From: an uncultured Acidobacteriota bacterium
GTDB taxonomy: Bacteria > Acidobacteriota > Thermoanaerobaculia > UBA5066 > Gp7-AA6
Direction: 5' to 3'
Assembly (NCBI GenBank): GCA_963829925.1
Contig: CAWHKQ010000015.1
Location: 182,073-246,072 of the forward strand
Length of the DNA stretch: 64,000 nt
Of this stretch, positions 1-64,000 are shown piece after piece. The notes beneath the pieces are model-generated. The model saw only the letters and a program-made list of their open reading frames with translations. It was not told the DNA's origin and did not search any database. The position numbers and the translations under genes were made by a program. Each line of letters starts with the position of its first letter. Position 1 is the first letter of the stretch.

Positions 1-552
1 TGTTGTAGTCCACTCCCGTGTCGAGCACGGCGATCGCGTGCCCGGCGCCGTCGAAGCCGAGGGCGTTGGTCCGGTCGCTCTGAATCAGGACCTGCGCGGG
101 CTGCGCGATCTCGTCGTGCCTGTGGCGGACGGCGTCGAGAGTGACCCAGCGCACATCGCGCCGGTTGGCCAGCGCGAGCACGCCGTCGCGCGTAGCCCGT
201 GCCGGCGAGCATCGGAAAAGCTTCCGTACTCGCGGCGCATCGCGATCGATCCGGGAGCCATCTCCCCGACCAGCCGCCTCTGCGCCGCCAGGCGGCGGAT
301 GCGGCGGGCGGGCTCTCCGGCGGTGTCGGGACGAGCCGCGAGAGCCCGGTGGGAGGGAGTGTCGTCGCGGAGGCCGACGATCACGTTCAGGACGCCGTCT
401 CCGCGATTCAGAGCGGCGAGGACCGACGCGTCGGCCCGGGGCGCTTCGTCGGGCGTCGTCATCCGGACCGCGCGCCCGCCCGAGCGAGGCTGCGAGAAAC
501 AGAAGACACACCGCCGCAGTCCTCTCCCCGAGTTTTCCGACCGGACGCATAA
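1..552 (-). CDS. Subtilisin-like serine peptidase (S8) with I9-type propeptide, N-terminal part only; it runs off the left edge and needs 2 frameshifts to read
   Basis: Minus-strand translation gives a signal peptide MRPVGKLGERTAAVCLLFLAASLG (start near 552). A second frame gives an I9-like propeptide (VLNVIVGLRDD...MRREYGSF). Back in the first frame it reads ALANRRDVRWVTLDAV...GFDGAGHAIAVLDTGVDYN, the catalytic Asp motif, at coordinates ~60-2. The listed ORF 85..579(-) is the middle-frame piece. Confidence 0.6.
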
Positions 553-637
553 GGCAGGAAACAGGCGAAAACCCAGCAAATTCCGGCTTCCGGACGGGCG
601 AGGACGCCGCGGAGAGGCCTGCTATCGTTGCGCCGCC

Positions 638-1342
638 ATGCGCGCGGTGTTCGCCGACTGCCACGTGGGGCGCCGCCCCGGGGACGAAGGGCCGTTTCTC
701 GAGGCCCTGGAGCAGGCGAGGCAGCGCGGAGCCCGGGCGATCACGCTGCTGGGAGACATCTTCCACTTCTTCATCGCCCACCCGAAGTTCGAGACTCCGG
801 CGATCGCCCGCTTTCTCGAGACCGCGCGGGGGCTGCAGCAGGCCGGCGTGGCGGTCACTTACGTCGAAGGCAACCGGGACTTCTTTCTGCGAGGCTCCTA
901 CGCCGAGAGCGCGTTCCGGGCGGTGTGCGACGAGGAGACATTCGAAGCCGGAGGCCGGCGCTTTCTGGCCACCCACGGCGATCTTCTGAACGAGAAGGAC
1001 AGGCCCTATCGGTTCTGGCGGTTTCTCTCGAAGAATCCGGTTTCGCGCGCGGCTCTGGCCGTCGTCCCGAAGGGGGCCGGCAACCGTCTCGTGTGGAACG
1101 TGGAAGCGCGCCTGTACCGCTCCAATTTCAAGCACAAGACGCGCCTGCCGGTCGAGATGATCCGGAGCTTCGCCGAGAAGCGGTTTCGCCAGGGCATCGA
1201 CGTGCTGCTGCTCGGGCACTTCCACAAGTCCTGGAGAGAAAACGTCGACGGGGGAGTGGTCGAGATCCTCCCGGCCTTCGTCGACGAGCGCCGCTGGATG
1301 GAGATCGGCGGTGACGGGGAGACGAGGCTCGTGGGCCTCTGA
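638..1342 (+). CDS. Calcineurin-like metallophosphoesterase, LpxH-like UDP-2,3-diacylglucosamine pyrophosphatase candidate
   Basis: ATG at 638 inside the long ORF 38..1342. Motifs DCHVG, GDIFHF, GNRDFF, THGD, GHFH fit the LpxH/calcineurin phosphoesterase pattern. The 5' 600 nt of the listed ORF are Arg-rich antisense of the subtilase. Confidence 0.55.
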   Translation: MRAVFADCHVGRRPGDEGPFLEALEQARQRGARAITLLGDIFHFFIAHPKFETPAIARFLETARGLQQAGVAVTYVEGNRDFFLRGSYAESAFRAVCDEETFEAGGRRFLATHGDLLNEKDRPYRFWRFLSKNPVSRAALAVVPKGAGNRLVWNVEARLYRSNFKHKTRLPVEMIRSFAEKRFRQGIDVLLLGHFHKSWRENVDGGVVEILPAFVDERRWMEIGGDGETRLVGL

Positions 1343-1368
1343 ATTCCGAAGCCCGCGATCCTGCACTC

Positions 1369-2643
1369 GTGAGCCACGTCCTGTCGGTGCCGCCCGTCTC
1401 GTCGATCCGCGGCTCCCTGCGGGTTCCTCCTTCCAAGAGCGCCACGAACCGGGCGCTCCTGCTGGCCGCGCTGGCGGAGCGGCCGGTCGAGATCCGTCGA
1501 CCCCTGGCCAGCGACGACACCGTCGCGCTGCAGCGCTGTCTGACGGCGATGGGCGCCTCGATCGAACCCGTCGCGGGCGGGCTCACGGTCTCGGGCCCGC
1601 TCGGCGCGGATTCCAGCCGGACGATCCCTCTCGACGCCGGCGACTCCGGCACGGCGGCCCGCTTTCTGACCGCCGTGTGCTCGGCGATCTCCGGGCGTTT
1701 CCTTCTGACCGGCTCGCATCGTCTTCGGGAACGGCCCATCGCGCCCCTCGTTGAGGCATTGACTGCCGCCGGCGCGCGTATCGCCTATGCCGGAGAGGCG
1801 GGTCGGCTCCCGCTTCGAATCGACGGCGGCGGGCTGCGCTCGGAGCTTCTTCGAGTGGACGCGTCGGAGTCGAGCCAGTACCTCTCGGCCATCCTGCTGG
1901 CAGGCGTCGCGGTGGAGGGCGGGCTCTCCGCCCGCGCGACCGGGGCCGTCGCCTCGCAGCCCTATGTCGCCATGACGCTCGACGCCCTGAGGGCTTTCGG
2001 GCATGACGTCGTCGAGACGGACTCCGTGCGCGTCCGGAGGGGAGCGCTGCATTCCGGTCGATACGAGGTTCCGGGCGACTACTCGTCGGCGGTTCCTCTC
2101 CTCGCCGCCGTCGGCGCCGCCGGGGGCTCGCTGGAGCTGACGGGGCTCGCCTGGCCGTCCCGGGACGCCGATGCGGACGCGATTCCCGTCCTCGAGCGGA
2201 TGGGGATCCGGATCGACGGATTCGCCTCGGCCCTCGTCGCCGCCGCATCGGGCGACTTGCTGCGCCCGGTCTCGGTCGAAGCGACGGGGTTCCCGGACTC
2301 CGTCCCGGCGCTGGCAGCTCTGGCCGCGCTTGCGCCGGGGGAGAGCCGGTTTTTGGGGATCGGTCATCTCCGGCTCAAGGAGAGCGACCGGATCGCCGCT
2401 CTGGCCGGGATCCTGACGGCCGCCGGCGCCTCGGCGACACCCGGGCCCGACAGCCTGACGGTCGTGGGTCCGGCGCGAGTCCGCGGGCTCGTCCGCCTCG
2501 CAACGCACAGCGACCATCGCATCGCCATGGCCGCCGCGCTGCTGTCGCTGCGCCTTCCCGGCCTCCTCATCGAGAACCCCGCCTGCGTTTCCAAGTCCTA
2601 CCCGGCCTTCTTCCGGGACCTGGATTCCGTCTCGGTCCGATAG
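1369..2643 (+). CDS. aroA: 3-phosphoshikimate 1-carboxyvinyltransferase (EPSP synthase)
   Basis: Intact 424-aa ORF. N-terminal LRVPPSKSATNRALLLAALA, C-terminal CVSKSYPAFFRDL, and the HRIAMAAAL motif are typical AroA. Confidence 0.9.
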   Translation: MSHVLSVPPVSSIRGSLRVPPSKSATNRALLLAALAERPVEIRRPLASDDTVALQRCLTAMGASIEPVAGGLTVSGPLGADSSRTIPLDAGDSGTAARFLTAVCSAISGRFLLTGSHRLRERPIAPLVEALTAAGARIAYAGEAGRLPLRIDGGGLRSELLRVDASESSQYLSAILLAGVAVEGGLSARATGAVASQPYVAMTLDALRAFGHDVVETDSVRVRRGALHSGRYEVPGDYSSAVPLLAAVGAAGGSLELTGLAWPSRDADADAIPVLERMGIRIDGFASALVAAASGDLLRPVSVEATGFPDSVPALAALAALAPGESRFLGIGHLRLKESDRIAALAGILTAAGASATPGPDSLTVVGPARVRGLVRLATHSDHRIAMAAALLSLRLPGLLIENPACVSKSYPAFFRDLDSVSVR

Positions 2644-3077: not shown

Positions 3078-7006
<3,929 letters not shown>

Positions 7007-7062: not shown

Positions 7063-7748
7063 GTGATCTCGCTGCTCGACATCGTCGGCCCCGTCATGGT
7101 CGGCCCGTCCTCCTCCCACACGGCCGGCGCCTGCCGTCTCGCGCGCGTGGCGCGGGCGCTCCTGGAAGAGGAGCCGGTCGAGGCGCGCTTCGAGCTCCAC
7201 TCGGCTTTCGCCAAGACGATGCGCGGCCACGGAACGGACCGCGCGCTGGTGGCCGGCGCCCTCGGCATGGAGGTCGATGACGCCCGGCTGAAGGACGCCC
7301 TGGAAATGGCCGCGGCGAGCGGGTTCCCCTACAAGCTCAAGCCGAAGAACATGGGACCGGAGGCGCACCCGAACAGCGTCGCGATCCACCTGAAGGAAAG
7401 ACGCGGGCGATCTCGATTCTCGGCGCCTCGATCGGGCGGCGGGATGATCGAGATCCGGGAAGTCGACGGGTTCCCCGTCGTCGCTGTCGGCCAAGGATCC
7501 CTGCCTGCTGCTCTTCTACGATGACCGGCCGGGCGTCGTGATGCGCGCCTCCGAGATCATCGGCCGCCGCGGGATCAACATCGCTTCGATGGAGGTTCTG
7601 CGCCGCGGAAAGGGCGAGCTGGCGTTCATGCGGATCGACCTCGACGCCCCGCTGCCGGCCGAAGACGTCGCGTCCATGAAAGCAGCTGCCGGGCATTCGC
7701 CGCGTGCACGTGCTCGACCGCGTGGCCGGGGGCGCGCCCATTACCTGA
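7063..7748 (+). CDS. sdaAB: L-serine dehydratase (Fe-S dependent), beta subunit; frameshifted
   Basis: N-terminal ISLLDIVGPVMVGPSSSHTAGA, characteristic of SdaAB. The ACT-like C-terminus ASEIIGRRGINIASMEVLRRGKGELAFMRIDLD is in another frame. It ends ...RRVHVLDRVAGGAPIT* near 7748. Confidence 0.65.
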
Positions 7749-7759
7749 GGAGAGTGTCC

Positions 7760-8641
7760 ATGTCCCGTCTCAACAGCTTTGCCGATCTGCTCGACGTCGC
7801 GGCGGAGACCGGCCAGCCCCTCGACGCGATCTTTCTGGCCGAGGAAGCCGCCGAGCGGGAAGTTCCCGCGGACCGCGTCTTCCAGACGATGCTGGAGCGC
7901 TGGGCGGTCATGAAGGATTCGGTTCGGCGCGGGCTCGCGGGCGGAAAATCCTTCTCGGGGATGGTCGGCGGCGACGCGAAGAAGATCATGGATTTCGCCC
8001 GCGGCGGCGACATCGCCGGCGGAAGTCTGGTCGCAAAGTGCATCGCCTATTCGATTGCCGTGCTCGAGGAGAATTCCCGCATGGGGATCATCGTGGCCGC
8101 CCCGACGGCCGGAGCGCCGCGGGGATGGTGCCGGGCACTCTGCTGGCGATGTCGGAGGAGCGCGGGCTTCGACGATGCGTTCGCCGCGCGCGGACTCGTC
8201 GTTGCCGGAGGCTTCGGCGCGCTCGTGGCCGGCCGGGCCGAGCTGTCCGGCGCCGCCGGCGGCTGTCAGGCCGAGCAGGGCGTGGGCGCCGCGATGGCCT
8301 CCGGCGCTCTGACGTTCCTCCTCGGGGGCACGCCCGCCGCCTCCGTCCATGCGGCGGCGCTCACTCTGCAGAACACGCTGGGGTTGGCCTGCGACCCGGT
8401 GGCCGGCCTCGTCGAGGTGCCGTGCGTGGTGCGCAACGGTTTCACCGCGATGCTCGCCCTGACGGGGGCCCAGGCGGCCCTCGCGGGCGTCGAGAGCGTC
8501 ATCCCGATGGACGAGGTCGTGGAGGCCATGGTCAAGATCGGCGAGGCGATGCCGCGGTCGCTGAAGGAGACGGCCGACGGCGGTCTCGCGATGACGCCGA
8601 CGGGCTGCCGCATCCGGAAAGAGCTGTACCAGATTCGGTGA
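7760..8641 (+). CDS. sdaAA: L-serine dehydratase, alpha subunit; two frameshifts near 8100-8170
   Basis: RBS gaggag then ATG. It reads MSRLNSFADLLDVAAETGQPLDAIFLAEE...GGDAKKIM...VAKCIAYSIAVLEEN... and later ...AAALTLQNTLGLACDPVAGLVEVPCVVRNGF...MPRSLKETADGGLAMTPTGC, typical of SdaAA. Confidence 0.7.
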   Translation: MSRLNSFADLLDVAAETGQPLDAIFLAEEAAEREVPADRVFQTMLERWAVMKDSVRRGLAGGKSFSGMVGGDAKKIMDFARGGDIAGGSLVAKCIAYSIAVLEENSRMGIIVAAPTAGAPRGWCRALCWRCRRSAGFDDAFAARGLVVAGGFGALVAGRAELSGAAGGCQAEQGVGAAMASGALTFLLGGTPAASVHAAALTLQNTLGLACDPVAGLVEVPCVVRNGFTAMLALTGAQAALAGVESVIPMDEVVEAMVKIGEAMPRSLKETADGGLAMTPTGCRIRKELYQIR

Positions 8642-12092: not shown

Positions 12093-14577
<2,485 letters not shown>

Positions 14578-14592
14578 GGTTCTGAGCCTACT

Positions 14593-15060
14593 CCTCCAGC
14601 TCCGCCGCGACCGGTATCTCGATCTCCTTCTCTCGCAGGTCGGGCACCCGCGGGAGGAGGATCTCGAGAAGGCCGTTCTTCAGTTTGGTCTTCGCCAGGT
14701 GCGAATTGACCGGGCGCGGCAGCGGGATCGACTTCACGAAGGCGCCGAAGTAGCGCTCCATGCAGAAAAAACGCATGCCTTCCCGGGCGCGGATCCGTCC
14801 CTTCTTGGTCCCGCGGATCATCGCCATGCGGCCGCGGATCGTGCACGCGGACGTCGCCGGCCTCGACGCCCGGCAGCTCGACGAGGATCTGGATCGACTC
14901 CCCGTCGTCCACGACGTCCACGTTGGGGTCCCAGGAGGACGCCGGCGTCCCGCCCTTGTTGTTCGACTCGACGAAGACGGCGAAGAGCCGGTTGAGCTCG
15001 CTCTGCAGACGCGAGAGCTCCACCATCGGACCGTAGAACCGGGCCGTGCGTCTCACCATG
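14593..15060 (-). CDS. Small heat-shock protein, Hsp20/alpha-crystallin family; frameshifted near 14830-14870
   Basis: N-terminal MVRRTARFYGPMVELSRLQSELNRLF...WDPNVDVVDDGESIQILVELPGVEAGDVRV. C-terminal EGMRFFCMERYFGAFVKSIPLPRPVNSHLAKTKLKNGLLEILLPRV. Confidence 0.7.
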
Positions 15061-15121
15061 GGATCGCTCGGCTCGGCGTCGGCTCGATAAGTCGGGATCC
15101 CTCGGCCTGCGGCCTCGGGAT

Positions 15122-15149
15122 GACTTCGTGGGGCTCGCCTCACGAAGTC
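15122..15149. promoter_or_regulatory. Perfect 9-bp inverted repeat (GACTTCGTG-N10-CACGAAGTC) overlapping the nrdR stop codon, upstream of hsp20-lon
   Basis: Read directly from the sequence. The stem-loop has no T-tract. It could be a transcript-end hairpin or an HAIR/CIRCE-style heat-shock operator. Confidence 0.3.
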
Positions 15150-15648: not shown

Positions 15649-16691
15649 CTATCGGCTCCCGATTTCCGGCTCCGCCGCCAGGTCCTCGAGGCGCTTTTTG
15701 CGCAGCGGGCTCGTGGCGAAGAGCGCGAATCCGATGAGCGAGATCGGGACGAACGACACCGCGTGCGCGAGCAGGGCCACGCCCGTCGCCGTGGCCACCG
15801 GGACGGCGAAGACGTCGGTCAGGGCGAACTGCACGGCCGCGTGGTATCCGCCCACACCGCCGGGCGTGGGGACGGCGAGGCCCAGGACCGCGGCGGTCGT
15901 CACCACATAGGCGGCCGTCAGGGGCAGGTCGAGGTCGAAGGCGCGCATCACGCAGTAGATCTGGACGTTGATCACCAGCCACATGCCGACGGAGCCCGCC
16001 GACACGAGCAGGAGGAGTCGAGGCGTCCTCAGCGACGCGAACCCGTCGAGGAACGTGCTCGAGATTTTCCGTGCGATGTCTCGGAAGCGCTCGGGAAAGA
16101 CGCGAAAGAGGCTGCTCGAGGACCTTTTCGGTCATCTGCCGCCAGACGACCGCGAAGAGCGCGACCGCGATGGCTCCCGCCGCGATCGCCGCCACGACCC
16201 ATCGGGTCCGGTCCGAGGCCATGATCCCGCGTCGTGCCGGACCCCGAGGCCAGCGCGATCCCGAGAAAAAGAAGCTGCGCCAGCGCATCGAGGACCCGCT
16301 CGAAGACGATCGAGGCGAGGAGCGCCGCAAAGGGCAGCCCCCGCTCGCGGGCCAGGATCGCCGGCCGCAGCACCTCCCCGGCGCGCGCCGGCAGGACCGT
16401 GTTCGCGGCGAAGCCGATCGCGGTGGCGCGGAAAGCCGGCACGAACGGGACGCGGCCGACGGGCTCCAGGATCCAGATCCAGCGGACGGCCCGGAGCACG
16501 AACACGAACAGCGAGAGAACAACGCTCGCCGCGAGCCATCCCGGCGAGACATCGGCCAGCCGCCGGCCGATCTCGGCGAGCGGAACGCGGGACAGGAAGA
16601 ACGCCAGGAGTCCGATCGCGAGCACGATCGAGGCGACGGCCTGGAAACGGCGCGAACGAAACAGGGAGCGAGACGAGGTGACCGGCGTCAC
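15649..16691 (-). CDS. UPF0104 / lysylphosphatidylglycerol-synthase-TM-like flippase-like membrane protein; frameshifted near 16010-16030 and near 16230
   Basis: MTPVTSSRSLFRSRRFQAVASIVLAIGLLAFFL...LRAVRWIWIL...FRATAIGFAANTVLPARAGEVLRPAIL and C-terminal ...AAVLGLAVPTPGGVGGYHAAVQFAL... match the LPG_synthase_TM/UPF0104 family. Confidence 0.6.
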
Positions 16692-16797
16692 CGGCGCTCA
16701 GGCGCCGCGGCCAGGGCTCGAGGAGACGGAGACTCCCCTCGAATCAACCTCGTTTGTGCGAATCTCACGCATGGGTTTTAGCATTCGCAGCGTGCGT

Positions 16798-16818
16798 TTG
16801 CCTAAGAAAATGAGGCAA
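16798..16818. promoter_or_regulatory. Imperfect palindrome TTGCCTaAGAAAATGAGGCAA, a candidate operator upstream of the repeat-protein promoter
   Basis: 7/8 matching arms. It lies in a ~40% GC island between divergent genes. Confidence 0.3.
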
Positions 16819-16833
16819 AGCCCCGATAACACT

Positions 16834-16862
16834 TGACTTTCCAGCGTATTTTTCACATTCTT
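16834..16862 (+). promoter_or_regulatory. Putative sigma-70-type promoter (TTGACT -35, 17-nt spacer, weak -10 CATTCT) followed by RBS GGGAGG (16875-16880)
   Basis: A -35 hexamer with 5/6 consensus match. AT-rich context unusual for this genome. Strong SD 8 nt before the ATG at 16889. Confidence 0.4.
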
Positions 16863-16888
16863 TTCTTAAATTTTCGGGAGGAACACGC

Positions 16889-20116: not shown

Positions 20117-20149
20117 GATCCTGCCGCCAAGCGGCTATTTCAGCGGCCC

Positions 20150-20270
20150 TCATCAGCTCGCGGCGGGGGAGCGCTCTCCCGGAGGAGCCGGCCGCGGGAG
20201 CCGAGCGGCGAGGGATCAGGCGAACGGTCGAGCGCGCACCCGCGCGAGCCGTTCAGTGCGCCGCGCCGCA
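20150..20270. repeat. Copy D of the GC-rich intergenic repeat, same orientation as the right arm at 2886-3006 (inverted relative to copy C)
   Basis: cgcggcgggggagcgctctcccggaggagccggccgcgggagccgagcggcgagggatcaggcgaacggtcgagcgcgc aligns with 2886-2998. The outer end (...ggtcgagcgcgcacccgcgcgagccgttcagtgc) is the reverse-complement match of the outer end of copy C. Confidence 0.55.
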
Positions 20271-20292
20271 GTCCGAGCGAGCGGAGGCGACG

Positions 20293-21942
<1,650 letters not shown>

Positions 21943-26787: not shown

Positions 26788-30011
<3,224 letters not shown>

Positions 30012-30667: not shown

Positions 30668-30698
30668 GGGGGCGACTCGTTTCCGACGAACGCGTCGG

Positions 30699-46176: not shown

Positions 46177-47656
46177 TCAGTACGCGTTGCGGTGGCGCAG
46201 GCCGTGCCGCAGCGTCATCCAGAGGATCTTGATGTCGAGCGAGAGCGACCAGTTCTCGATGTAGTAGAGGTCGTACTCGATGCGCTTGGAGAGGCTGGTG
46301 TTGCCGCGCCAGCCGTGCACCTGGGCCCAGCCCGTGATGCCGGCCCGCACGCGGTGGCGGAGCATGTACTGCGGGAACTTCTCCTTGAACTCGCGGACGA
46401 ACTCGGGCCTCTCGGGGCGCGGGCCCACCAGCGACATCTCGCCGCGGAACACGTTGACGAGCTGGGGCAGCTCGTCGAGGCTCCACGCCCGAGGAAACGC
46501 GCCGAGGCGGGTCCGGCGCGGGTCGTCCTCGCTGGCCCAGGTCGGGCCGGACTCCTCTTCGGCGCCGACGACCATCGAGCGGAATTTCAGGATGTCGAAG
46601 GGCCGGCCGTCGAGGCCCATGCGGCGCTGGCGATAGAGGATCGGGCCGCGGCCCGAGAGGCGGATCGCCAGCGGCGATCGCGCCGAGCAGCGGCGAGAAA
46701 GCGCCGACGAGGGCCGCCCGCCGAGATCGCGACGTCGAGCGTGCGCTTGACGAGGCTCATCCAGCCCGTCAGCGGCACCTGGGTCAGGTGGACGACGGGC
46801 AGGCCGTCGAAGTCCTCGATCGCCGGCGCGGAAGGTGATGTACTGGAGCAGGTCCGGCACGACCCGGACGTCGGCGACGGTGCGGCCCACGTCCTGCAGG
46901 ACCGACAGCATCGGCCCGATGCGCGTCGAGGGGGAGAGCGAGAAAGACCGTGTCGACTCCGCGCTCGTCGACGATCCGGGCCGACGTCCGCGGTCGTGCC
47001 GATCACGGGCAGCGCCGCGGTACGAGGTCGAGCGCTTCTCCGGCGCGTCGTCGACGAATCCGATCGCCCGGAGGCCCGGCCTCGGGATGCTCGAGGAACT
47101 TGTCGACGAGCGCGCGGCCCAGCCGTCCGGCGCCGACGACGAGCACGTGCCGCACGTTGACGCCGTGCCGCCAGGCCTCCTCGAGATAGCGGCGGATGGC
47201 GGTGCGGCCGGCGAACACGAAGAGCACGTCGAGACCGAAGAAGAAGAGGAGCACGAGCCGCGAGTAGGAGAATCCGCGGTAGAAGGTCGCGAGGCCCGCG
47301 AGCAGCAGCGTCGCGAGCCCCGTCGCGACGAAGACCGAAAGCCCCTCCTCGACCCGGGAGCGGTTCCGGCGCACCTGGTAGAGGCCGTAGAAGTAATAGA
47401 CGATCGGCCACAGAACGGCCATCAGCGGGAAGAGGCGGTAGTAGGAGGACGCGTCGGGAATGCCCTTCGTGACGGGCACGATCTCCGCCCGAAACCGCAG
47501 GAAGTACGCGGCGGACAGGGCGGCCAGCGTCGCGCCGACGTCGGAGACGGCGAGGAGGAACGCGATGCGACGCGTGGAGTTTCGGATCACGGCAAAACGC
47601 TGACTCAGCGAGCCTCGGAAACTCTCCGGCGAAACGCTCTCCGGCGGAAAGGGCAA
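46177..47656 (-). CDS. Exopolysaccharide-priming polyprenyl-phosphate hexose-1-phosphate transferase (WbaP/bacterial sugar transferase family); frameshifted
   Basis: N-terminal TM domain (ORF 47003..47656). C-terminal ...DILKFRSMVVGAEEESGPTWASEDDPRRTRLGAFPRAWSLDELPQLVNVFRGEMSLVGPRPERPEF...GITGWAQV. Confidence 0.7.
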
Positions 47657-51143: not shown

Positions 51144-51195
51144 TGCGCGGTTCTACCATGACCAGCACGCGAGACGCTCTCTCCGCTCGAATACC

Positions 51196-51698
51196 GTGCT
51201 CGACGAGCCCGTGAGGTTCGCCTTCGAGCTGCCGTGTCCCGTCGCGGCGATCGACCGGGAGCCCTCTGGTCTCGCTGTCGCCCCTCGCATCTCTCGGGTC
51301 AGGTGCGGCGCATCGACGGGGGATACGCGCTCGAGGCCCGGCTCGCCTACGGAGGGGAGCTCGAGTGCAGCCGCTGCCTGGCGCCCTACCCGTTCGAGGA
51401 GAGACGAGAGCTTCTCGCTGGTCCTGTATCCCCGCGGCAGCGGCAGCCGGCGGACGACGTCGAGCTCGACCGCGGCGACCTCGACGTGCTCTACTACGAC
51501 GAGCCGCTGGTCGCGCTCTCGCCCGATCGCCGAGGAGCGCGTGCAGATGGCCTCCCGATGAAGCCCCTCTGCAAGGAGGACTGCCTGGGCCTCTGTCCGA
51601 CGTGCGGAAAGGACTTGAACCAGGGTCCGTGCGCCTGCGCGCCCGAAATCATCGACCCCCGCTGGGAGGCCTTCAAGGCTCTCAAGGAGAAAGTGTAG
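51196..51698 (+). CDS. yceD: YceD/DUF177 family protein (precedes rpmF); frameshifted near 51290
   Basis: C-terminal ...CKEDCLGLCPTCGKDLNQGPCACAPEIIDPRWEAFKALKEKV with the conserved Cys cluster. N-terminal LDEPVRFAFELPCPVAAIDRE in another frame. Confidence 0.65.
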
Positions 51699-51705
51699 GA
51701 CCACG

Positions 51706-51882
51706 ATGCCGAATCCCAAACGGCGCCACAGCAAGGCCCGCCGCGACAAGCGCCGCGCGCACGACGCGCTCGCACGCCGCCCGCGCTGTCGGAGTGTCCC
51801 AACTGCCACGAGGCCAAGCAGCCTCACCGCGTCTGCACGCGCTGCGGGTACTACAAGGGCAAGCAGGCGATCAACCCGTAAG
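51706..51882 (+). CDS. rpmF: 50S ribosomal protein L32; frameshifted
   Basis: MPNPKRRHSKARRDKRRAHDAL... then, in a second frame, ...SECPNCHEAKQPHRVCTRCGYYKGKQAINP*. Confidence 0.75.
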
Positions 51883-52007
51883 ACGTGAACCGGAAGCCGA
51901 CAACCGTAAGCCGAAAGAGCCGCGGCTCACGGCTCACGGCTGACGGCTCACGGCCCCGGCCGTTATAATCCCCGCACCCGTGTTCCTATCAGGCGAGAGA
52001 GGCTGAC

Positions 52008-53040
52008 GTGCGGATCGCAGTCGATGCGATGGGCGGCGACAACGCGCCGCTCGTGAACGTGGACGGCGCCATCGCCGCCGCCCGGGAGTTCGGGATCCGG
52101 CTCGCTCCTCGTCGGCAAGACCGGCCGAGCTCGAGGCTCTGCTCCGAGGACTCCGGTTATCACGGGCTCCGACATCGAGATCGTCGACGCGCCGGAGGTC
52201 GTGACCATGGACGACCCGGCGACGGCGGCGATCCGCAAGAAGCGCAACTCCTCGATCCGGATCGCGGCCAACTGCGTCCGCGACGGGCGGGCCGCCGGGC
52301 CTCGTCTCCGCCGGCCACACGGGCGCCGCCATGGTCTGCGGCCAAGATGGTCATCGGGACGATCGAAGGCGTCGACCGCCCGGCCCTCGCGACCGTCCTG
52401 CCCAACCTGACCGGCCACTGCCTGCTCCTGGACGTCGGGGCGAACCCGGACACGAAGACGCCCGCATTTCAAGGAGTTCGCGATCATGGGCTCGATCTAC
52501 GCCGAGCTCGCCTTCGGCAAGAAGAACCCCTCGATCGGCCTGATGTCGATCGGCGAGGAGGACTCGAAGGGGACCGAGCAGACGAAGGAAGTCTTCAAGA
52601 CGCTCAAAGACGACCGGCCTGAACTTCATCGGCAACGTCGAAGGGCCGCGACGTTTTCAACGGCACCGTCGACGTGATCGTCACGGACGGGTTCACCGGC
52701 AACGTGATCCTGAAGGTCTCGGAGTCGCTCTCCGAGATGGTCGAGAAGCTCCTCCGCGAGGAGATCAAGCGGACCCTCCAGGCGTCCGTCGGCTTCCTGC
52801 TCTCGCGCTAGGCGTTCCGGAGCTTCAAGCAGCGGCTCGACTATTCCGAGTACGGCGGCGCGCCGCTGCTCGGCGTCAAGGGGTGCGTGATCATCTGCCA
52901 CGGCCGCTCCTCGCGCGAAGGCGATCAAGAACGCCATCCGCTTCGCCGCCGAGTTCTCGCGTCAGAAGCTCGCCGAGAAGATCCAGGCCCAGATCGCCGA
53001 GCTCCACGCCCGCGAAGAGCGCGCGTCGGCGAAGGCGTGA
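52008..53040 (+). CDS. plsX: Phosphate acyltransferase PlsX; multiple frameshifts plus one in-frame TAG (near 52809)
   Basis: [30 protein letters not shown]..., ...[28 protein letters not shown]..., ...[17 protein letters not shown]..., ...[18 protein letters not shown]. Confidence 0.75.
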
Positions 53041-54029
53041 ACCGGGCGCAGAGTCGTCGGGACGGGCGCGGCCGTCCCGAAGAAGCTCCTGACCAACGCG
53101 GACCTGGAGAAGCTCGTCGAGACCTCGGACGAGTGGATCATGTCGCGCACCGGGATCAAGGAGCGCCACATCGTCTCGGAGGGCGAGCACTTCTCCGACC
53201 TCTGCACGCGGGCGGCGGAGCAGGCGCTCAAGACGCGCGCGCTTGCAGGCCGAAGACCTCGACATGATCCTCGTCGGGACGATCTCGGGCGACATGCCTT
53301 TCCCGGCGACCTCCTGCCTCGTCCAGCGCAACCTCGGCGCGACGCGGGCGGCGGCGTCGGACGTGGGCGCGGCCTGCGTCGGGTTTCTCTATGCCCTCCA
53401 CCTCGCCGACGGTCTGATCCAGTCGGGCAAGGCCGAGAACGTCCTCGTGATCGGCGGGGAGATCCTCTCGCGCATCGTCGACTGGACCGACCGCAACACC
53501 TGCGTGCTCTTCGGCGACGGCGCCGGGCGCCGTCGTCCTGCAGGGCGACCAAGGGGGATCACGGCATCCTCGGCAGCCTGATGAAGTCCAACGGCAACCT
53601 CCACGACTTCATCTGCATGCCCGGCGGCGGCTCGGACCGGCCCGGCCAACGACCCGAAGTCCATCGAGGAGCGGCTGCCGTTCATCAAGATGAAGGGCAA
53701 CGAGACGTTCAAGGTCGCGGTCAAGGCGATGGCCGACGTCAGCGAGCGAGCTGCTTGACCGAGCAGGGCTTCACGCACGAGCAGATCGACCTCTTCATCC
53801 CGCACCAGGCGAATCTCCGGATCATCGACGCCGTCGGCGAGCGGCTGAAGATCGATCCCAAAAAGGTCTACAAGAACGTGGAACGCTACGGGAACACGTC
53901 GGCCGCGTCGATCCCGATCGCGCTCGACGAGTGCGTCCGCGAAGGGCCGCGTGGAATCGGGCGACATCGTCCTGCTGACGGCGTTCGGGGCGGGGCTCGT
54001 CTGGGGCATCCGTGCTCCTGCGCTGGTGA
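53037..54029 (+). CDS. fabH: 3-oxoacyl-ACP synthase III; frameshifted
   Basis: ...[40 protein letters not shown]...[10 protein letters not shown]...[12 protein letters not shown]...[17 protein letters not shown]...[17 protein letters not shown]. Confidence 0.8.
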
Positions 54030-54042
54030 GACGACCCCTTCC

Positions 54043-54955
54043 GTGACGCTCGTCCTCCTGTTCCCCGGCCAGGGCTCGCAGTTCGTCGGCATGGGCAAGG
54101 CGCTCTATGAAGGCTCTCCCCGCGGCGCGGACCGTCTTCGAGGAGGCGGACGCGGCGCTCGGGTTTTTCGCTCTCCCGGCTCTGCTTCGAGGGGCCGGAG
54201 GAGGAGCTGCGAGCTCACGGCGAACACCCAGCCCGCGATCCTGACGCACTCGATCGCGGCCTCGGGCGGACCTGCGCCAGCGATTTCCCGAGCGGCTCGA
54301 GGGGGCCGGCGTTCGCCGCCGGCCACTCGCTCGGCGAGTACTCGGCCAGCGTCGCCGCCGGGTCGCTGTCGTTCGCGGACGCGGTTGCGCTGGTGCGCGA
54401 GCGCGGACGCTTCATGCAGGACGCCGTGCCGCCCGGCGTCGGGGCGATGGCCGCGATCGTGGGGCTTGCCGCCGAGGAGGTCGAAGCGGCCTGCCGGGAG
54501 GCCGCGCAGGACGAGTCTGTTTCGCCCGGCCAACTACAACTCGCCGGAGCAGACGGTGATCGCGGGTCACGCGGCCGCGGTGGCGCGGGCGTCCGCGGGG
54601 TGCCTCGCGCGCGGCGCGAAACGGGCGATTCCGCTCCCGGTGTCCGCTCCGTTCCACTGCGCGCTCATGTCCCCGGCGCGGGAGCAGATGCGGCCCCTTC
54701 TCGAGAGCCTCCGCTTCGCCGACGCGGCCCTCCCCGTGGTGACCAACGTGGATGCCGAGCCGGAGACCAGGGTGAACGGAGACTCCGCGACGCGCTGATC
54801 CGCCAGATCGACTCTCCCGTGCGCTGGGTCGCGCTCGGTCCAGCGACTCGCCCGCGAAGGCGTGACTCGCGGCGATCGAGATCGGGCCGGGCAACGTCCT
54901 GGCGGGGCTCGTCCGCCGGATCGACCGGTCGATCAAGGTCGAGGGCCATGCGTAG
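54043..54955 (+). CDS. fabD: Malonyl-CoA:ACP transacylase; frameshifted
   Basis: VTLVLLFPGQGSQFVGMGKALYE..., active site ...AAGHSLGEYSASVAAGS..., ...NYNSPEQTVIAGH..., ...IEIGPGNVLAGLVRRI. Confidence 0.8.
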
Positions 54956-54997
54956 AGCCGTCGCCCCTTCGTCGTCTCCTCGCGGCTCGCCGCACGG

Positions 54998-55875
54998 ATG
55001 TGCGACCTGCCGCGGCCCGGGACCCTCCGAGCTGTCGACGCGGCGGTCGCCACGGCCGAGCGCCGTTGCCAGTGCCGCGTCGGCGTCGCCGCGCGGCACC
55101 TCGAGAGCGGCCGGGCGTACGAGCACAACGCGCGAGGTCGAGTTCGAATCGGCTTCGGTGATCAAGATCGCGGTGCTGACCGAGGCGATGGCCGCCGTGC
55201 GCGAGGGCCGGGTCGACCTGTCCGAGCGCTGGGATCTGACCCTCGAGAACAAGGCCGACGGTTCGGGGACTGCTTCTCCTGCTCGATCCGGGCCTCAAGC
55301 CGACGTGGAACGACCTGGCGACCCTCATGATCGGCCCCTCCGACAACACCGCCACGAACGCGTGGATCGAACGACTGTCCGTCGATTCCATCAACGCGCG
55401 GATGCGGTCGCTGGGCTTCGCGCACATCCGGCTGCTTCGGCACGATCCCGATAGCTCTCGACGCGCGACGACAGCCCCTCGCCCTGGAAGGGCTTGCGGC
55501 TCGGCGCGATCACGCCGCACGACGTCGCCGAATGGATGACGCGGGTCGCGAGGGGGGAGCTGCTTCGACGGCGAGTCGTCGAAGAGGATCTTCGACTACC
55601 TCGACAAGGACCCGAGCCGCCTGCGCATCGCGCGCCGCTTCCCGTCGGACGTCCTCTGGGCGGGCAAGACCGGCACCATGTCGGGCGTGCGCAACGACTC
55701 CGGAATCCTGCGGAACCGCGAAGGGCCGCTTCGTGCTCGTCATCTTCACCGCCGACAGCCAGGCCGAAGGCTGGGGGGCGGATCATCCGGCGGTCCTGGC
55801 GATCTCGAACCTCGCCCGGGCGATCGTCGACGGGTGGAGCCGGGACCTGCCGGACATCGTCGAGAAACCCGAATG
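54998..55875 (+). CDS. Class-A beta-lactamase-family serine hydrolase (SxxK ... KTG); frameshifted
   Basis: ...FESASVIKIAVLTEAMAAV (S-V-I-K), ...MIGPSDNTATNAWIER... (SDN loop), ...VLWAGKTGTMSGVRNDSGIL... (KTG). It is embedded between fabD and fabG. Confidence 0.6.
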
Positions 55876-55948: not shown

Positions 55949-56693
55949 ATGACCCGCTTCACCGGCAAGACCGCCCTCGTCACCGGAGCATCCCGGGGAA
56001 TCGGCGAGGCGATCGCGAAGCGTCTGGCCGCGGAGGGGGCGACCGTGATCGCCGCGGCGCGCTCGACGGAGGCGCTCGAGAGGGTCGTCGCGGAGATCGC
56101 GGCCGCGGGCGGGAAGGCGGCGCCCCTCGTCCTGGATCTGGCCGACGGCACGGCAATCGACGGCGCTGTCAAAGGCGCGCTCGCCTCCCACGGGGAGATC
56201 CACGTTCTCGTCAACAACGCCGGCGTCACGGAGGACAACCTCATCCTGCGGATGAACCGGAAGGCCTGGGACACGGTCCTGGCCACGAACCTCACCGGGG
56301 TGTTCCTCCTGACCCAGGCCGTGATCAAGGGGATGGTGCGCCAGCGCTACGGCCGGATCGTCAACGTGACCTCGGTCGTCGGCCTGATGGGGAACGCCGG
56401 CCAGGCGAACTACGCGGCCTCGAAGGCCGGCCTCATCGGTCTGACCAAGTCCGTCGCGCGCGAGCTGGCCTCGCGCAACATCACGTGCAACGCCGTGGCG
56501 CCCGGCTTCATCGCGACGGCGATGTCCGACAAGATGACGGACGTGGCGCGTGAGCGTCTGCTCGGCGCAGATTCCGCTCGAGCGCCTCGGCACGCCCGAC
56601 GACGTCGCCGCGGCCGTGGCGTTTCTCGCTTCCGAGGAGGCGCGCTACATCACGGGAACCGTTCTCAACGTCTCCGGGGGCCTCTATATGTAG
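55949..56693 (+). CDS. fabG: 3-oxoacyl-ACP reductase; frameshift near 56560
   Basis: [31 protein letters not shown]...NAGVTEDNL...[34 protein letters not shown]. Confidence 0.85.
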
Positions 56694-56771
56694 TTTTTCC
56701 TACCCTTGCCCCCGGGGGGCATCTAGGGAACAATACGGCGTCTTTTCGCAATCCGAAGAAGGGGGAGAGGA

Positions 56772-57011
56772 ATGGCTGTCGAAGAAAAGGTGAAGAGCAT
56801 CATCGTCGAGCAACTCGGCGTGGACGCCAACGAAGTGACTCCCGAGGCGTCTTTCGTCGATGACCTCGGCGCGGACTCGCTCGACACCGTGGAGCTCGTC
56901 ATGGCCTTCGAGGAAGCGTTCAACATCGAGATCCCGGACGAGGCCGCCGAGAAGATCCAGAAGGTCAAGGACGCCATCGAGTACATCGAGAAGAACTCCT
57001 CGAAAAACTAA
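56772..57011 (+). CDS. acpP: Acyl carrier protein
   Basis: Intact 79 aa. ...[19 protein letters not shown]... with the phosphopantetheine Ser (DSLD). Confidence 0.95.
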
Positions 57012-57016
57012 ACCCC

Positions 57017-58281
<1,265 letters not shown>

Positions 58282-58289: not shown

Positions 58290-59073
58290 ATGAACTCGCT
58301 CGTCTGCATCGCCTACGTCCCCGACACCGAGACCAAGATCAAGATCGCGGCCGACGGAAAGTCGATCGACGAGTCGGACGTGAAGTGGATCGTCTCGCCC
58401 TACGACGAGTTCGCCCTGGAGGAGGCGCTCCGGACAAGGAGGCGAAGGGCGCGGGCGTCGTGACCGTGATGACGGTCGGGCCCGAAAGGGCCAAGACGGG
58501 GCTGCGCGAGTGCCTCGCGCGAGGCGCGGACGAGGCGATCTGGGTGGATTCGACCGGAACCCCGTTTCTCGATGCGCTCGGGACGGCCAGGGCGCTGGCC
58601 GCCGCCGCAAAAGGCGGGGCGTACGACTTCCTGTGGTTCGGCCAGAAGGGCGTCGGATTCGACGAGTCGCTCGTCGGGCCGATGTTCGCCGAGCTGATGG
58701 ACCTGCCCCATGTGGCCAACGTCATCAAGCTCGAGATCCAGCGAGGGCAAGATCACCGCGCACCGGGAGATCGAGGGGGCCCACGAGGTCGTGGAGTGCG
58801 CGCTGCCCGCGGTGCTGACCGCGCAGAAAGGGCTCAACGAGCCGCGGTACGCGTCGTTGAAGGGGATCATGGCGGCCAAGAAGAAGCCGATCGTCGAGAA
58901 GAAGCTGGCGGAGCTGGGCGTGCCGGAGGCCGACCCCGCCAACGCGAAGACGCGCTGGCGCAAGCTCGAGCTCCCGCCGGCGAGCGTGGCGTGCAAGATG
59001 GTGCCCGGCGACGACCCGGTGGCGGCGGGCAAGGAGCTGGCGCGCTTGCTCCGTGAGGAAGCAAAAGTCATCT
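58290..59073 (+). CDS. etfB: Electron transfer flavoprotein, beta subunit; frameshifted
   Basis: [47 protein letters not shown]...VTVMTVGPE.... C-terminal ...[22 protein letters not shown].... Confidence 0.8.
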
Positions 59074-59145
59074 GACGGCCGCCACCACGCCGTCATCCCG
59101 AGCAGTAGCGAGGGATCGCCGAACTCGAATAGGACAACGATCATC

Positions 59146-60113
59146 ATGAAATTCCTCGTCTTCATCGAACAGCGGGACGGCAAGATCCGAAAGGCCTCGC
59201 TCGAGGCGCTCTCGCTGGCGCGCAAGCTCGCCGGCGGCCCGGTCGCGGCGGTGATTCCCGGAAAGGGAGTCACGGCCCTGGCCAAAGACCTCGGAGATAT
59301 GGCGCGGGGACCGTGTACGTCGCCGACCGCGAGGACCTTGCCCTCTACGGCAACAAGGGCTACGTCGGGGCTCTCGACGCGGCGACGAAGAAGGAGAGCC
59401 CCGACGCCGTTCTGATCGCCGCGACCGCGATGGGCAAGGACGTGGCGCCCCGCTATGCCGCGCGCCACGAGGTCTCGGTCCTGGCCGACGTGATGGAGCT
59501 GCGGGTCGAAGGGGATCGCCTCGTGGCGTGGCGTCCCGTCTATTCGGGCAAGGCGCGGGCCGAGGTCGACTGCGGGGCCGCGAAGCTGCAGATCGCGACG
59601 ACGCGGCCGAACGTTTTCCCGGCCGAAGCCCAGGACGGAGCGGCGGAGCCGAAAATCGAGACGCTCGAGCTCGGCGACATCGCGCCCCGCGCGAAGGTCG
59701 TGCGCGTCGAAGTCTCCGAGACCAAGGAGATCGACGTTTCGGAAGCCGACATCATCGTGTCCGGAGGCCGGGGCATCAAGGGCCCCGAGAACTGGCCCCT
59801 CATCCGCGACCTGCAGCAGGCCCTTCACGCGGCCCTCGGCGCTTCGCGCGCCGTGGTCGACGCCGGCTGGATCGACCACCAGCATCAGGTCGGCCAGACG
59901 GGCAAGGTCGTGTCGCCGACTCTCTACGTCGCCTGCGGCATCTCCGGGAGCGATCCAGCACCTCGCCGGGATGGGCACGTCGAAGGTCATCGTCGCGATC
60001 AACAAGGACGCCGAGGCGCCGATCTTCAAGGTCGCCAACTACGGCGTCGTCGGCGACATCTTCAAGATCGTTCCCGAGTTCGCCAAGGCTGTGAGGGCCG
60101 CGCAAGCACGGAG
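59146..60113 (+). CDS. etfA: Electron transfer flavoprotein, alpha subunit; the 3' end is probably frameshifted
   Basis: [31 protein letters not shown]..., FAD-binding ...[74 protein letters not shown].... Confidence 0.8.
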
Positions 60114-60233
60114 TGACGTCGGCATTTCACCGGTCGGCTCAGAACGTCTCTGCGGCGTATCTGCGACCGCGGCCTCAGCTGTCAGCGCTGAGCGCGGCAG
60201 AGCCATCCTCGAGAATCGAAGCGACCCGCATCC

Positions 60234-61231
60234 TCAGGACGGCGGCAGCTCCTTCTCGACAACTTTCACCCGCCGGGCGCCGGCGGTCGCACGCCGCCGG
60301 TGCTCGTGGAAGTGCTTGGACTGAACGCGAGTGAACACCGCGCCCAGCAGCACCAGAAGAGAGCGTAGTAGACCCAAAAGAGGATGACGATAACCGAGGC
60401 GGCGGTTCCGTATGCCGAGGCCAGGGCAGTCCGGCCCAGATAGAATCCGATCGCCCACTTTCCCAGCGAGATCAGCAGCGCCGTCACGAGCGCGCCGAAC
60501 CAGACGTCGCGCCACGGGATCTCGACGTCGGGCAGGATGCGGTAGATCATCGCGAAGAGGAGGGAGATCAGCAGATAGGTCACGACCGCGTTCGCCGCCC
60601 TCGAAGAGGGCGGCGGGAAGCTCCAGGAAGCCCTGGACCAGGACCTGGAGCGCGTGCATCGTCGCCGAGAAGACGAGCGAGACGAGCAGGACGAACCCGA
60701 CGGCCAGGACCAGCGCGAATGAGATCAGCCTCTTCAGCAGCAGGGTCTTGATCAGCGGTCCCGGCTTGGGTGCCACATCCCACATGTGGTTGAGCGAGTC
60801 CTGGAGCTGGACGAAGACCGCGGTGGTCCCGACGCAGAAACGTGATGAGCCCGACGATCCGGGCAAGGGCGCCTGTGCTCTGGAAAGCGGCGTATCCGAG
60901 CATCTGCGTCGACGGCCAGAGCCTGGTCATGGCCCATGAGCAGCTCGAACTCGCCGACGATGTGCTGGCGAACCGCCGAGGGTTCGAAGAGCCGGCCGGC
61001 CACCGCGACGAACAGGATCAATACCGGAGCGAACGAGAACAGCGCGAAGAAGGCGAGGGCCGCGCTCTGCGCGAATGCGTCGCGTTCGAACCAACTCGCG
61101 AAGGTCTCCCGCAGGATCGGGTCCCCAGAGGCGGGGGCGCGGGTGAGCGGGAGCGTCGGACCATCGCGCCGAGATCGTAAGTCAATCGGGGCGAGTCTCT
61201 CGGCCGAAAAACAGCCTGCTAGACTTGGCAT
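60234..61231 (-). CDS. YihY/BrkB-family membrane protein; frameshifted
   Basis: ...[29 protein letters not shown]..., ...[49 protein letters not shown]..., ...[14 protein letters not shown]..., YihY-family hallmarks. Confidence 0.65.
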
Positions 61232-61441
61232 CGTGCCGCCGCTGCCGACCGACAGGGTGATCCTCGGCCTGCCCGGCCGGGTGGTCTTCGCGCTCCTGGT
61301 CCTCGCGGCGACCGTCGCCTTCGTCTACTCCGATCTCGCGGCGGATCCGGGTGCTCCTCGCCGGCCGGCCGGACAACCGCTTCACGCGGATCGGCGGAGC
61401 GCATCGTTCGCACGCTCGAGTACGCGTTCGCGCAGAAGCGC

Positions 61442-63260
61442 ATGTTCCGCGACTTCTACGCGGGCGTGTTCCACATCCTGATCTTCAGCGGCTTCGTCGT
61501 GCTGACGGTGCGCACGATCGCGCTCGTCGTCGAGGGGCTGATTCCGGGATTCGTGCTCCTGCCCGGGGCGCGCCGGCAACGCCTACACGCTGGTCAAGGA
61601 CGTCTTCGAGGTGCTGACCCTCCTCGGGGTCGGGATGGCGGTCTTCCGTCGCGCCTTCGCCCGCCCGAAGCGGCTCGATCTGACGACCGACGCCTGGATC
61701 ATCCTCTTTCTCATCGCGTTCCTCATGGTGACGGACCTCGTCGCGGAAGCCGCGCGCACCGCTCTCGACCCGTCCCCCGCACGGTCTGGGTGCCGGCCGT
61801 CGGCGTCGCTCGCGCGGCTGGCTGGCGGGAGTCGCCGCGGTCGAGCTTCAGGCCGATCTACGAGTGGTGCTGGTGGGGGCACCTCGCTCGACATCCTGAT
61901 CTTCGGCAACTACCTCCCGTACTCGAAGCACTTCCACATCATCACGTCGATCCCGAACATCTTCTTCATGAACCTCGAGCCGATGGGCCAGCTCCGCGAC
62001 GGTCGACCTCGAGAACTCCGAGCGCTTCGGCGCCTCGCAGGTCGAGGACCTGACCTGGAAGTCGATGCTCGACGGCTACACCTGCACCGAGTGCGGGCGC
62101 TGCCGCGTCGTGTGCCCGACCGCCCTGACGGGAAAGCCGCTCGACCCGAAGATCTTCATCGGCGACGTGCGCGACGCGGTGTACGAGGCCACGCCTTCGA
62201 TCCTCGCCGCGAGGCCGACGGGCGCGGAAACGGCGCGGCGCCGCCCGCCGCGCCGGGACCTCATCGGGGACTGGATCTCCGAGGACACGATCTGGGCCTG
62301 CACGATGTGCGGCGTCTGCACGACGGCGTGCCCGGTCTTCATCATCCCGGCCGTCGACAAGATCGCCGAGATGCGCCGCTATCTCGTGCTCGACAAGGCC
62401 GAGTTCCCGAAGGAGGTCCAGAACGCCTTCCGCGGCATGGAGACCAACGGCAACCCGTGGAACATGTCGGCCGCGACCGCGCCAACTGGGCCAAGGCCTG
62501 CCGGTCGCGACGATGAGCCAGGTAGCCGGCATCGAGGTCGAGGTGCTGTACTGGGTCGGCTGCGCCGGCAGCTACGACGACCGCGCCAAGCGGGTCTCGC
62601 GCGCCCTGGTCGAGATCCTGACCGCGGCCGGGGTCTCGTTCGCGATCCTCGGCACCGAGGAGACCTGCACCGGCGACTCCGCGCGCCGCGTGGGCAACGA
62701 GTACCTCTTCCAGATGCTGGCGCAGCAGAACGTCGAGACGCTCAACGGCTACAAGGTCCGGAAGATCGTCACGACCTGCCCGCACTGCTTCAACTCCCTC
62801 AAGAACGAGTACCCGGACTTCGGCGGCCACTACGAGGTCGTCCACGGCTCCCAGCTCGTCGCCGAGCTGATCGCGCGCCGGCCGGGTGAAGATGACGACG
62901 CCGCGATCCCGGAGACGGTCACGTTCCACGACACCTGCTACCTCGGCCGCTACAACGACGTGTACGACGCGCCGCGCGAGATGCTCGCGCGCGATCCCCG
63001 GCGTGCGAGCTGCCGCGAGCTCGCGCGCTCGCAAGAGAAGGGCCTGTGCTGCGGCGCCGGCGGCGGGCAGATGTGGATGGAGGAGAAGCTCGGCAGCGCG
63101 ATGAACCAGAAGCGCATGCGCGAGATCGCCGACACCGGCGCGGGCTCCGTCGGCGGTCTGCCCGTTCTGCATGGTCATGATCGGCAACGCGAAGGACGAG
63201 CTCGGCGTCGCGACGCAGCCCTTCGATGTCCTCGAGCTCGCGCGCCGCTCGATGGGGTGA
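61442..63260 (+). CDS. Membrane-anchored Fe-S oxidoreductase: N-terminal multi-TM domain, two [4Fe-4S] ferredoxin motifs and two cysteine-rich CCG domains (heterodisulfide-reductase-like / GlcF-like); frameshifted. An alternative GTG start lies at 61233
   Basis: MFRDFYAGVFHILIFSGFVVLTV... (TM). CTECGRCRVVCP and CTMCGVCTTACP (ferredoxin motifs). ...VTTCPHCFNSLKNEYP... and ...VTFHDTCYLGRYNDVYD...GLCCGAGGG...AVCPFCMVMIGNAKDE (CCG motifs). Confidence 0.65.
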
Positions 63261-63265
63261 CGGGC

Positions 63266-63726
63266 GCGTGACGCCGCGCGCGGTTCTGAACCGGGTCCTC
63301 GAGGCCCTTCGCCCCCTGCGGCCCGCGCGCTATCTCGGCTCCCGCGGCGTCGGCCAGAGCTGGGAGGACCTCGCGGCGAAGCGCCTGAAGGCCGCGGGTT
63401 ACAGGATCCGGGCGCGCAACTATCGCGGCCGCTCGGGCGAAATCGACTTCGTCGCCGAGGAAAACGGAGTGCTCTGCTTCATCGAGGTCAAGGGCCGAAG
63501 CGGCCTCGGCTTCGGGGCGCCCGCGGAGGCCGTCACGCTCGAGAAACAGCGCCGCATCGCGCGCGCCGCTCGGGAGTACGTCCGGCGGCGGCGCGTCGGA
63601 CCGGGGCGGTGCCGCTTCGACGTCGTCTCGATTCTCGAGTCGGACGGCCGCGCGGAGGTCGCGATTCTGCGCGGCGCCTTCGACGTGCCCGAGCCGCGAA
63701 CGCCTGACGTGAAGCCCGCATGCTAA
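63266..63726 (+). CDS. yraN: YraN-family (UPF0102) putative endonuclease
   Basis: GTG start. ...GEIDFVAEENGVLCFIEVKGRSGLGFGAPAEAVTLEKQRRIARAAREY..., typical UPF0102. Confidence 0.75.
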
Positions 63727-63750
63727 AATCGACCGTGATCCAGAGCGCAG

Positions 63751-64000
63751 GTGACAACGGACGAGGAGCTTCGCTACACCTTCGCCTGCCCGAGCTGCGG
63801 CGCGAGCTTTTCGATCGCGCTCGCGAAGATTCCCGCGGTCCAGGCCCGTTTCAGCTGCCCCCGGTGCGGCAAGGCGATGGACTTTCCGTCGCGCGACGAG
63901 GTGCGGGTCTACAATTTCCGGAGGCGGGGGAGAGCGCCCCGGAGCCCGCGCCGGCCCCCCGCCGCTCGAGCCCGAGCCCGAGCCGGCGCCGCCTCCCCCG
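63751..64000 (+). CDS. Zinc-ribbon (MJ0042-type) domain protein, N-terminal part; runs off the right edge
   Basis: VTTDEELRYTFACPSCGASFSIALAKIPAVQARFSCPRCGKAMDFPSRDEVRVY, two CxxC pairs. Confidence 0.4.
   Translation, partial: MTTDEELRYTFACPSCGASFSIALAKIPAVQARFSCPRCGKAMDFPSRDEVRVYNFRRRGRAPRSPRRPPAARARARAGAASP

Follow-up and report, generated by a model that had tools for sequence, protein, structure and literature searches.

The DNA examined here is a stretch of 64,000 nucleotides (the window) on contig CAWHKQ010000015.1 of an uncultured Acidobacteriota bacterium, with a GC content of about 70% throughout. It carries lon, recA, purH, plsX, murB, a fab cluster and several dozen further genes, and many of them are interrupted by frameshifts of one or two nucleotides. 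A total of 152 such events were counted in 33 of the 55 genes assessed, which cover about 52 kb of the window. Comparisons with related sequences make it highly probable that these roughly 150 indels are consensus errors of a long-read metagenome assembly overlying intact genes, and not mutations of the organism.

Frameshifts were located by an in-house frameshift-aware dynamic programming alignment of protein to DNA, in which intact orthologues from relatives were aligned to the whole window; the procedure was validated on Lon. Chaining of open reading frames (ORFs) and tblastn matches was dropped as the main measure because, with a GC content of 70%, ORFs in wrong frames or on the antisense strand remain open and even find matches among antisense ORFs of the relatives; it also misses closely spaced shifts. 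A plot of GC content at third codon positions by frame displays many phase changes, but gene borders and frameshifts are not separable by it. Tandem-repeat and tRNA scans of the window yielded nothing bearing on the frameshifts.

The original prediction, made from the letters of the window and a list of its ORFs, had put the frameshifts at more than 50 and the affected share at about half of the genes. The first figure is real but an underestimate, about threefold more having been counted, and the second is about right (60%). All of the genes it named were found by the alignment, with identities taken from Pfam, and all are broken. Its warning that six-frame ORF lists are full here of gene halves and of Arg-rich wrong-frame or antisense ORFs was correct, and the frameshift-aware gene comparison it proposed returns genes of full length once the frame is restored.

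The closest relatives of the Lon fragment are solely metagenome-assembled genomes (MAGs) of Thermoanaerobaculia or Acidobacteriota. Contigs L004 and L007, with length/coverage and k127 tags in their names, align at about 84% nucleotide identity over 3.5–28 kb of the window; L161, L162 and L163 at about 90–92% over 45.7–64 kb; and L165 (k141) at about 89% over 38.9–44.8 kb. Contig L164 aligns to positions 21198–42291 at about 96% overall and 98–99.4% in clean 2-kb tiles, and was treated as the same species. A metagenome scan with RecA returned mostly distant or short contigs and was of little use.

Sequencing platforms were assigned to the relatives from contig names and ENA accessions. Six contigs (L161, L162, L165, L167, L004 and L007) bear names of a short-read style (k141_, k127_, Scaff and similar), and four (L163, L164, L166 and L168) bear Flye-style 'contig_N' names and belong to the ENA analyses ERZ250395xx. 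A tie to the Microflora Danica (MFD) project was established for L168 only, which is the same contig as CAWEMP010000002.1 of MAG MFD02809.bin.2.249; judging by the accession series, the other three probably come from this project as well.

The genes of the window and their lesions are the following:

4587–6977, plus strand: sigma-54-dependent activator (Sigma54_activat, AAA_lid_14 and HTH_8, Pfam domains read on the L007 orthologue); 81% identity to that orthologue; six +1 frameshifts, with insertions at 5883, 6238, 6335, 6378, 6622 and 6650 in the alignment to L007
7036–7745, plus strand: sdaAB, serine dehydratase beta plus ACT (Pfam); four frameshifts, a deletion at 7394 and insertions at 7434, 7480 and 7679
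7663–8638, plus strand: sdaAA, serine dehydratase alpha (Pfam); three frameshifts
12094–14579, minus strand: lon; two 1-nt insertions, at about 13601 and about 13018, spreading the gene over three frames
14591–15133, minus strand: hsp20-like gene; two frameshifts
15664–16697, minus strand: membrane protein of the LPG_synthase_TM family (Pfam); two to three frameshifts
16814–18574, plus strand: Big_7-domain protein; intact, exemplifying a clean stretch (1.76 kb without any frameshift)
27627–32728, minus strand except hyp182 on the plus strand: clean block of pyrG, kdsB, hyp182, TPR, ispB and yajQ; no frameshifts
32825–33444, minus strand: lolA; two insertions, at 33378 and 33257, both absent from L164
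33451–35006, minus strand: purH; four frameshifts, none of them in L164
35576–38078, minus strand: TP_0789-like outer-membrane protein; four insertions close to the 5′ end
38422–39498, minus strand: recA; intact
39655–40148, plus strand: pgpA; five frameshifts (three deletions, two insertions), none of them in L164
40142–41038, plus strand: murB; three insertions, none of them in L164
46180–51017, minus strand: polysaccharide cluster of Bac_transf (seven frameshifts) and three GT4 glycosyltransferases (six, six and nine); the orthologues in L163 are intact
51183–51878, plus strand: yceD (seven frameshifts) and rpmF (one)
52008–53037, plus strand: plsX; ten insertions and an in-frame TAG at 52809–52811; 96% identity once corrected
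53037–55873, plus strand: fabH (eight frameshifts), fabD (nine) and a beta-lactamase-like gene (seven)
55949–58279, plus strand: fabG (one frameshift), acpP (none; 100% identical to L162) and fabF (eight)
58290–60105, plus strand: etfB (two frameshifts) and etfA (two)
60237–61185, minus strand: membrane protein of the BrkB/YihY family; six frameshifts
61233–63257, plus strand: Fe-S / CCG-domain oxidoreductase; 17 frameshifts, the highest number of any gene
In addition, kdsC carries one frameshift

Lon illustrates how a gene is scattered by such events. In the ORF listing it is split over three minus-strand frames, and each of its three pieces continues into Arg/Pro-rich nonsense. Aligned to the intact Lon of L004, the window matches in its frames −3, −1 and −2 in succession, with 92% identity. 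When two 1-nt insertions are allowed, it matches the intact Lon of L004 and L007 (832 aa) at 93% identity. A nucleotide alignment of 15 sequences places both insertions as single bases specific to the window, at about 13601 and at about 13018–13020. For the latter, the original prediction had described a single extra c within 13017–13030. A single extra base is indeed present, although it is less readily taken for a c: the relatives read GCGC-GCCGCCAC against GCGCAGCCGCCAC in the window, and given their sequence an extra A is simpler.

Extra bases make up about 85% of the frameshifts. In the set of 48 genes used for indel classes and density, 112 events are +1, 17 are +2, 16 are −1 and one is −2, so that insertions exceed deletions by 129 to 17, or about 7:1. 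The only in-frame stop is the TAG of plsX, which had been noticed before and is real; L162 and L163 read GAT and GAC at this codon. Its replacement takes a two-base change within one codon and looks like a local multi-base consensus error rather than a point mutation.

Read at face value, the frameshifts would mean massive recent gene inactivation, with true pseudogenes produced by genome decay. The deposited sequence does contain the lesions, which affect many genes. However, the coding sequences beneath them are conserved: frame-corrected proteins are of full length, with query coverage of about 100% and 67–100% identity to their orthologues, and in the worst-hit region the identity is 86–100%. 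Among 420 substitutions private to the window in 11.2 kb of coding sequence, 66% fall at codon position 3, close to the shares of private substitutions in two relatives (75% and 72%). By this pattern, the broken genes carry a signature of purifying selection. They include essential single-copy genes hit repeatedly (plsX ten times, fabH eight, fabD nine, fabF eight, murB three), together with rpmF, hit once; the earlier argument that essential genes cannot all be pseudogenes is borne out by them. The spectrum is likewise at odds with decay. Bacterial pseudogenes tend to show a deletion bias and a mixture of nonsense mutations, larger deletions and insertion sequence (IS) insertions, whereas the window has sevenfold more insertions than deletions and one stop codon.

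The lesions are also private to one assembly. In the 21-kb overlap with L164, this contig is intact at the exact site of 18 of the 19 window frameshifts, and the 19th lies 19 nt from such a difference. Conversely, L164 has 47 frameshifts of its own, none of which is found in the window. With the same aligner and references, the six short-read-style contigs gave no frameshifts in 8,234 codons, and the 'contig_N' contigs gave 2 (L163), 47 (L164), 39 (L166) and 31 (L168), in unrelated genes; tile-wise alignments agree with this contrast. Insertion-rich bursts thus recur in three of the four other 'contig_N' contigs, L163 being nearly clean, and are a feature of such assemblies of the clade, not special to the window. 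The attribution to assembly or sequencing indel error instead of pseudogenisation, already made from the letters, is supported by the absence of the lesions from same-species L164 and from the short-read-style relatives. We regard genome decay as very improbable.

Individual bursts in these contigs are sharply bounded. The TP_0789-like gene of L168 (4512–7049) holds 29 frameshifts, pyrG of L166 (12960–14635) holds 10, and 17 occur together in L164 at 19084–21004 (tatC and S41 protease); in each case the neighboring genes are clean.

Divergence between the window and L164 varies along their overlap. They differ by about 1% or less at 29.5–33 kb and by 10–15% at 21–23.5 kb. In the latter part frameshifts abound in L164 but not in the window, and the consensus at this end of L164 appears to be a mosaic or chimera drawn from more distant strains. 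In the clean block at 27627–32728, the mismatch is at most about 1.4% from 28.5 kb on and 2.8% in the 27.5–28.5 kb bins.

The region from 51.8 to 64 kb (12.2 kb) was resolved further by a three-way alignment with L162 and L163. It contains 73 window-private 1-bp indels, 62 insertions and 11 deletions, against two private 1-bp indels in L162 and five in L163. Indels occur at 5.9 per kb of coding and 11 per kb of non-coding sequence, the latter being a small sample of 631 nt; coding sequence is not spared by indels. None of the 108 homopolymer runs of at least 4 nt in this region (25 of them at least 5 nt) contains an insertion, and 51 of the 62 inserted bases are unlike both neighbors, compared with 31 expected for random insertion.

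These counts overturn part of the original prediction, which had invoked homopolymer-biased indels and proposed a check of G/C homopolymers; the check was run, and the proposal is wrong. The accompanying statement that intact genes are those of lower GC is at best a weak trend (mean GC 0.677 in intact and 0.699 in broken genes; Spearman rho 0.28, p = 0.057), and the statement that they are shorter fails, as frameshift density is independent of gene length. Density varies chiefly with position along the window (rho 0.43, p = 0.0025): it is zero per kb at 24–32 kb, 1–3 per kb at 4–12 and 32–44 kb, and 5–9 per kb at 44–56 kb.

Such regional bursts could arise from plain random read errors where local coverage was very low, with one or a few reads and no mixture of strains. 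Raw-read indel rates are on the order of 5–9 per kb, which is the density reached in the worst region of the window. Frameshifts in Nanopore MAGs have moreover been tied to low coverage (PMC9262707, PMC8103633, PMC12313526). Random errors, however, should ignore both codon phase and polymorphic neighbors, and neither expectation holds. Insertions fall at codon junctions 1|2, 2|3 and 3|1 in the numbers 8, 24 and 26 (p = 0.0065), and when the window is pooled with three other 'contig_N' contigs, 37 of 178 insertions lie at junction 1|2 (p = 1.6e-4). Dinucleotide context was considered as the cause of this phase bias and rejected, the bias persisting (p = 0.005) after conditioning on flanking dinucleotides. 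Insertions adjoin a site where L162 and L163 differ in 23 of 58 cases, against 15.4% expected (p = 7e-6), and in 13 of these 23 the two adjacent bases of the window are exactly both alleles. Along the alignment of the window with L164, indels become denser as mismatches do (rho 0.53, p = 2e-4), and none occur in stretches with at most 1% mismatch. We therefore consider random low-coverage error on its own possible but doubtful; it differs from a consensus of mixed strains in the mechanism of the artefact only, and both may contribute.

The same phase bias bears on another reading, in which the extra bases are real and tolerated through recoding, that is, programmed +1/−1 ribosomal frameshifting, transcriptional slippage or RNA editing. 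It would fit with insertions that are non-random in codon phase and followed by conserved coding sequence. Yet the flanks are diverse, with no common motif apparent on inspection by eye, and the events mix +1, +2, −1 and −2. Their positions are conserved neither in L164 nor in any other relative, they affect 33 genes, and their density is as high as 9 per kb in certain genes whose neighbors have none. Coincidence with synonymous polymorphic sites is a simpler account of the phase bias, and we assign recoding a practically negligible likelihood. Both real pseudogenisation and recoding are very unlikely because the lesions are not inherited, the genes are conserved, essential genes are broken, the spectrum is wrong and coding sequence is not spared.

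We therefore return to consensus error. The window would derive from an unpolished long-read metagenome assembly of a member of Thermoanaerobaculia (Acidobacteriota), most likely a MAG of the Microflora Danica long-read kind, made from Nanopore reads only with metaFlye and a single Medaka round. Too few reads may have gone into its consensus, or closely related strains may have been mixed in it. In the latter case, a single-nucleotide difference could be emitted as two bases, with both alleles in tandem, producing a +1 frameshift. The insertion bias of about 7:1, the regional clusters and the polymorphic third-codon neighbors point to a mixed-strain or low-local-coverage consensus, not to homopolymer miscalls, and the doublets suggest a mixed-strain consensus that kept both alleles side by side. 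We infer the platform, the pipeline and this 'allele doublet' mechanism from such traces. The IspB protein of the window is encoded with 100% identity on L164 and on one contig held by both NCBI and ENA, and the latter has the same deposit pattern as MFD MAG contigs.

Several points weigh against this explanation. The classical Nanopore error profile shows neither so strong a bias towards insertions nor an avoidance of homopolymers. Allele doublets explain only part of the events: 8 of the 58 insertions have no contact with a third codon position, and 35 of the 58 flank sites that are invariant between the relatives. The status of the indels as errors is drawn from comparisons among sequences, and the case for the platform and pipeline of the window is circumstantial. 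Furthermore, L164 represents another strain, which differs from the window by about 1% even where the sequence is clean, and lesions that are strain-specific and very recent would also be missing from it. We nevertheless find it extremely improbable that the extra bases are truly present in the DNA of the population, whether with full-length proteins obtained by large-scale recoding or editing, or in a strain caught at the onset of a catastrophic burst of frameshifts (e.g., through a defective polymerase or mismatch repair).

Three further observations concern repeats and annotation within the window. The Bac_transf gene contains a tandem repeat with a 29-bp unit (2.4 copies, 11% indels) at 46954–47021, in a part of the gene where three frameshifts cluster (47013, 46982 and 46912). 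L162 and L163 lack two intergenic insertions that are private to the window, one of 70 bp at 51882–51951 and one of 58 bp at 60157–60214. The first is accompanied by a 7-bp tandem repeat (CGGCTCA, 4.6 copies) at 51923–51954 and a 14-bp repeat at 51876–51914; both insertions may be either genuine short repeats or stutter of the assembly. On L165, a 191-aa gene was called (positions 3–575, no Pfam entry) that aligns to the window at 38947–39525 on the minus strand, inside the span of recA and on its strand. This gene, possibly recA truncated at the edge of the L165 contig, was omitted from the gene list.

The frameshifts of the window are almost certainly a data-quality warning and not a biological feature, and the affected genes (lon, the fab cluster, plsX, murB, purH and others) are almost certainly ordinary and intact in the organism. 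ORF tracks, gene calls, coding density, pseudogene counts and claims of a 'novel small ORF' or 'split gene' are unreliable here, above all at 44–64 kb, and any gene-level claim should be re-derived after polishing or with frameshift-aware tools.

Among known systems, true genome decay, as in recent host-restricted bacteria, resembles the window in that many genes are interrupted by frameshifts. Decay is also marked by a deletion bias, nonsense mutations, IS elements, relaxed selection, lesions common to close strains and the sparing of essential genes; none of these hallmarks, listed from general knowledge, is seen in the window.

A closer parallel is offered by Nanopore-only assemblies, for which it is well documented that frameshifts fragment genes, depend on coverage and can be repaired by polishing or frameshift-aware alignment (PMC9262707, PMC8103633, PMC12007338). 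In both cases, indels of one or two bases fragment conserved genes, giving truncated proteins of the type detected by IDEEL, and short-read assemblies of relatives are clean. In Nanopore-only assemblies the errors are worst in low-coverage bins and are corrected by polishing or by frameshift-aware protein alignment.

The Microflora Danica long-read MAGs were built from Nanopore reads only, with metaFlye and one round of Medaka, and their authors checked for, and note, Nanopore-associated errors in low-coverage MAGs (PMC12313526). The 'contig_N' relatives, all from the single accession series ERZ250395xx, share insertion-rich, clustered frameshifts with the window, apart from the nearly clean L163. 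In that catalogue, reduced coding density was linked to low GC and long homopolymers (PMC12313526), unlike the window at 70% GC, whose membership in the catalogue we infer.

Reports on Nanopore-only assemblies stress homopolymer miscalls, and two of those cited discuss mainly homopolymers (PMC12313526, PMC9262707), whereas in the window runs of at least 4 nt are untouched, insertions prevail by about 7:1 and the errors come in multi-kb blocks. What is unusual relative to documented Nanopore errors is this non-homopolymer, insertion-rich and polymorphism-linked profile. Since the errors appear as insertion-rich bursts beside polymorphic sites, quality checks focused on homopolymers would miss them.

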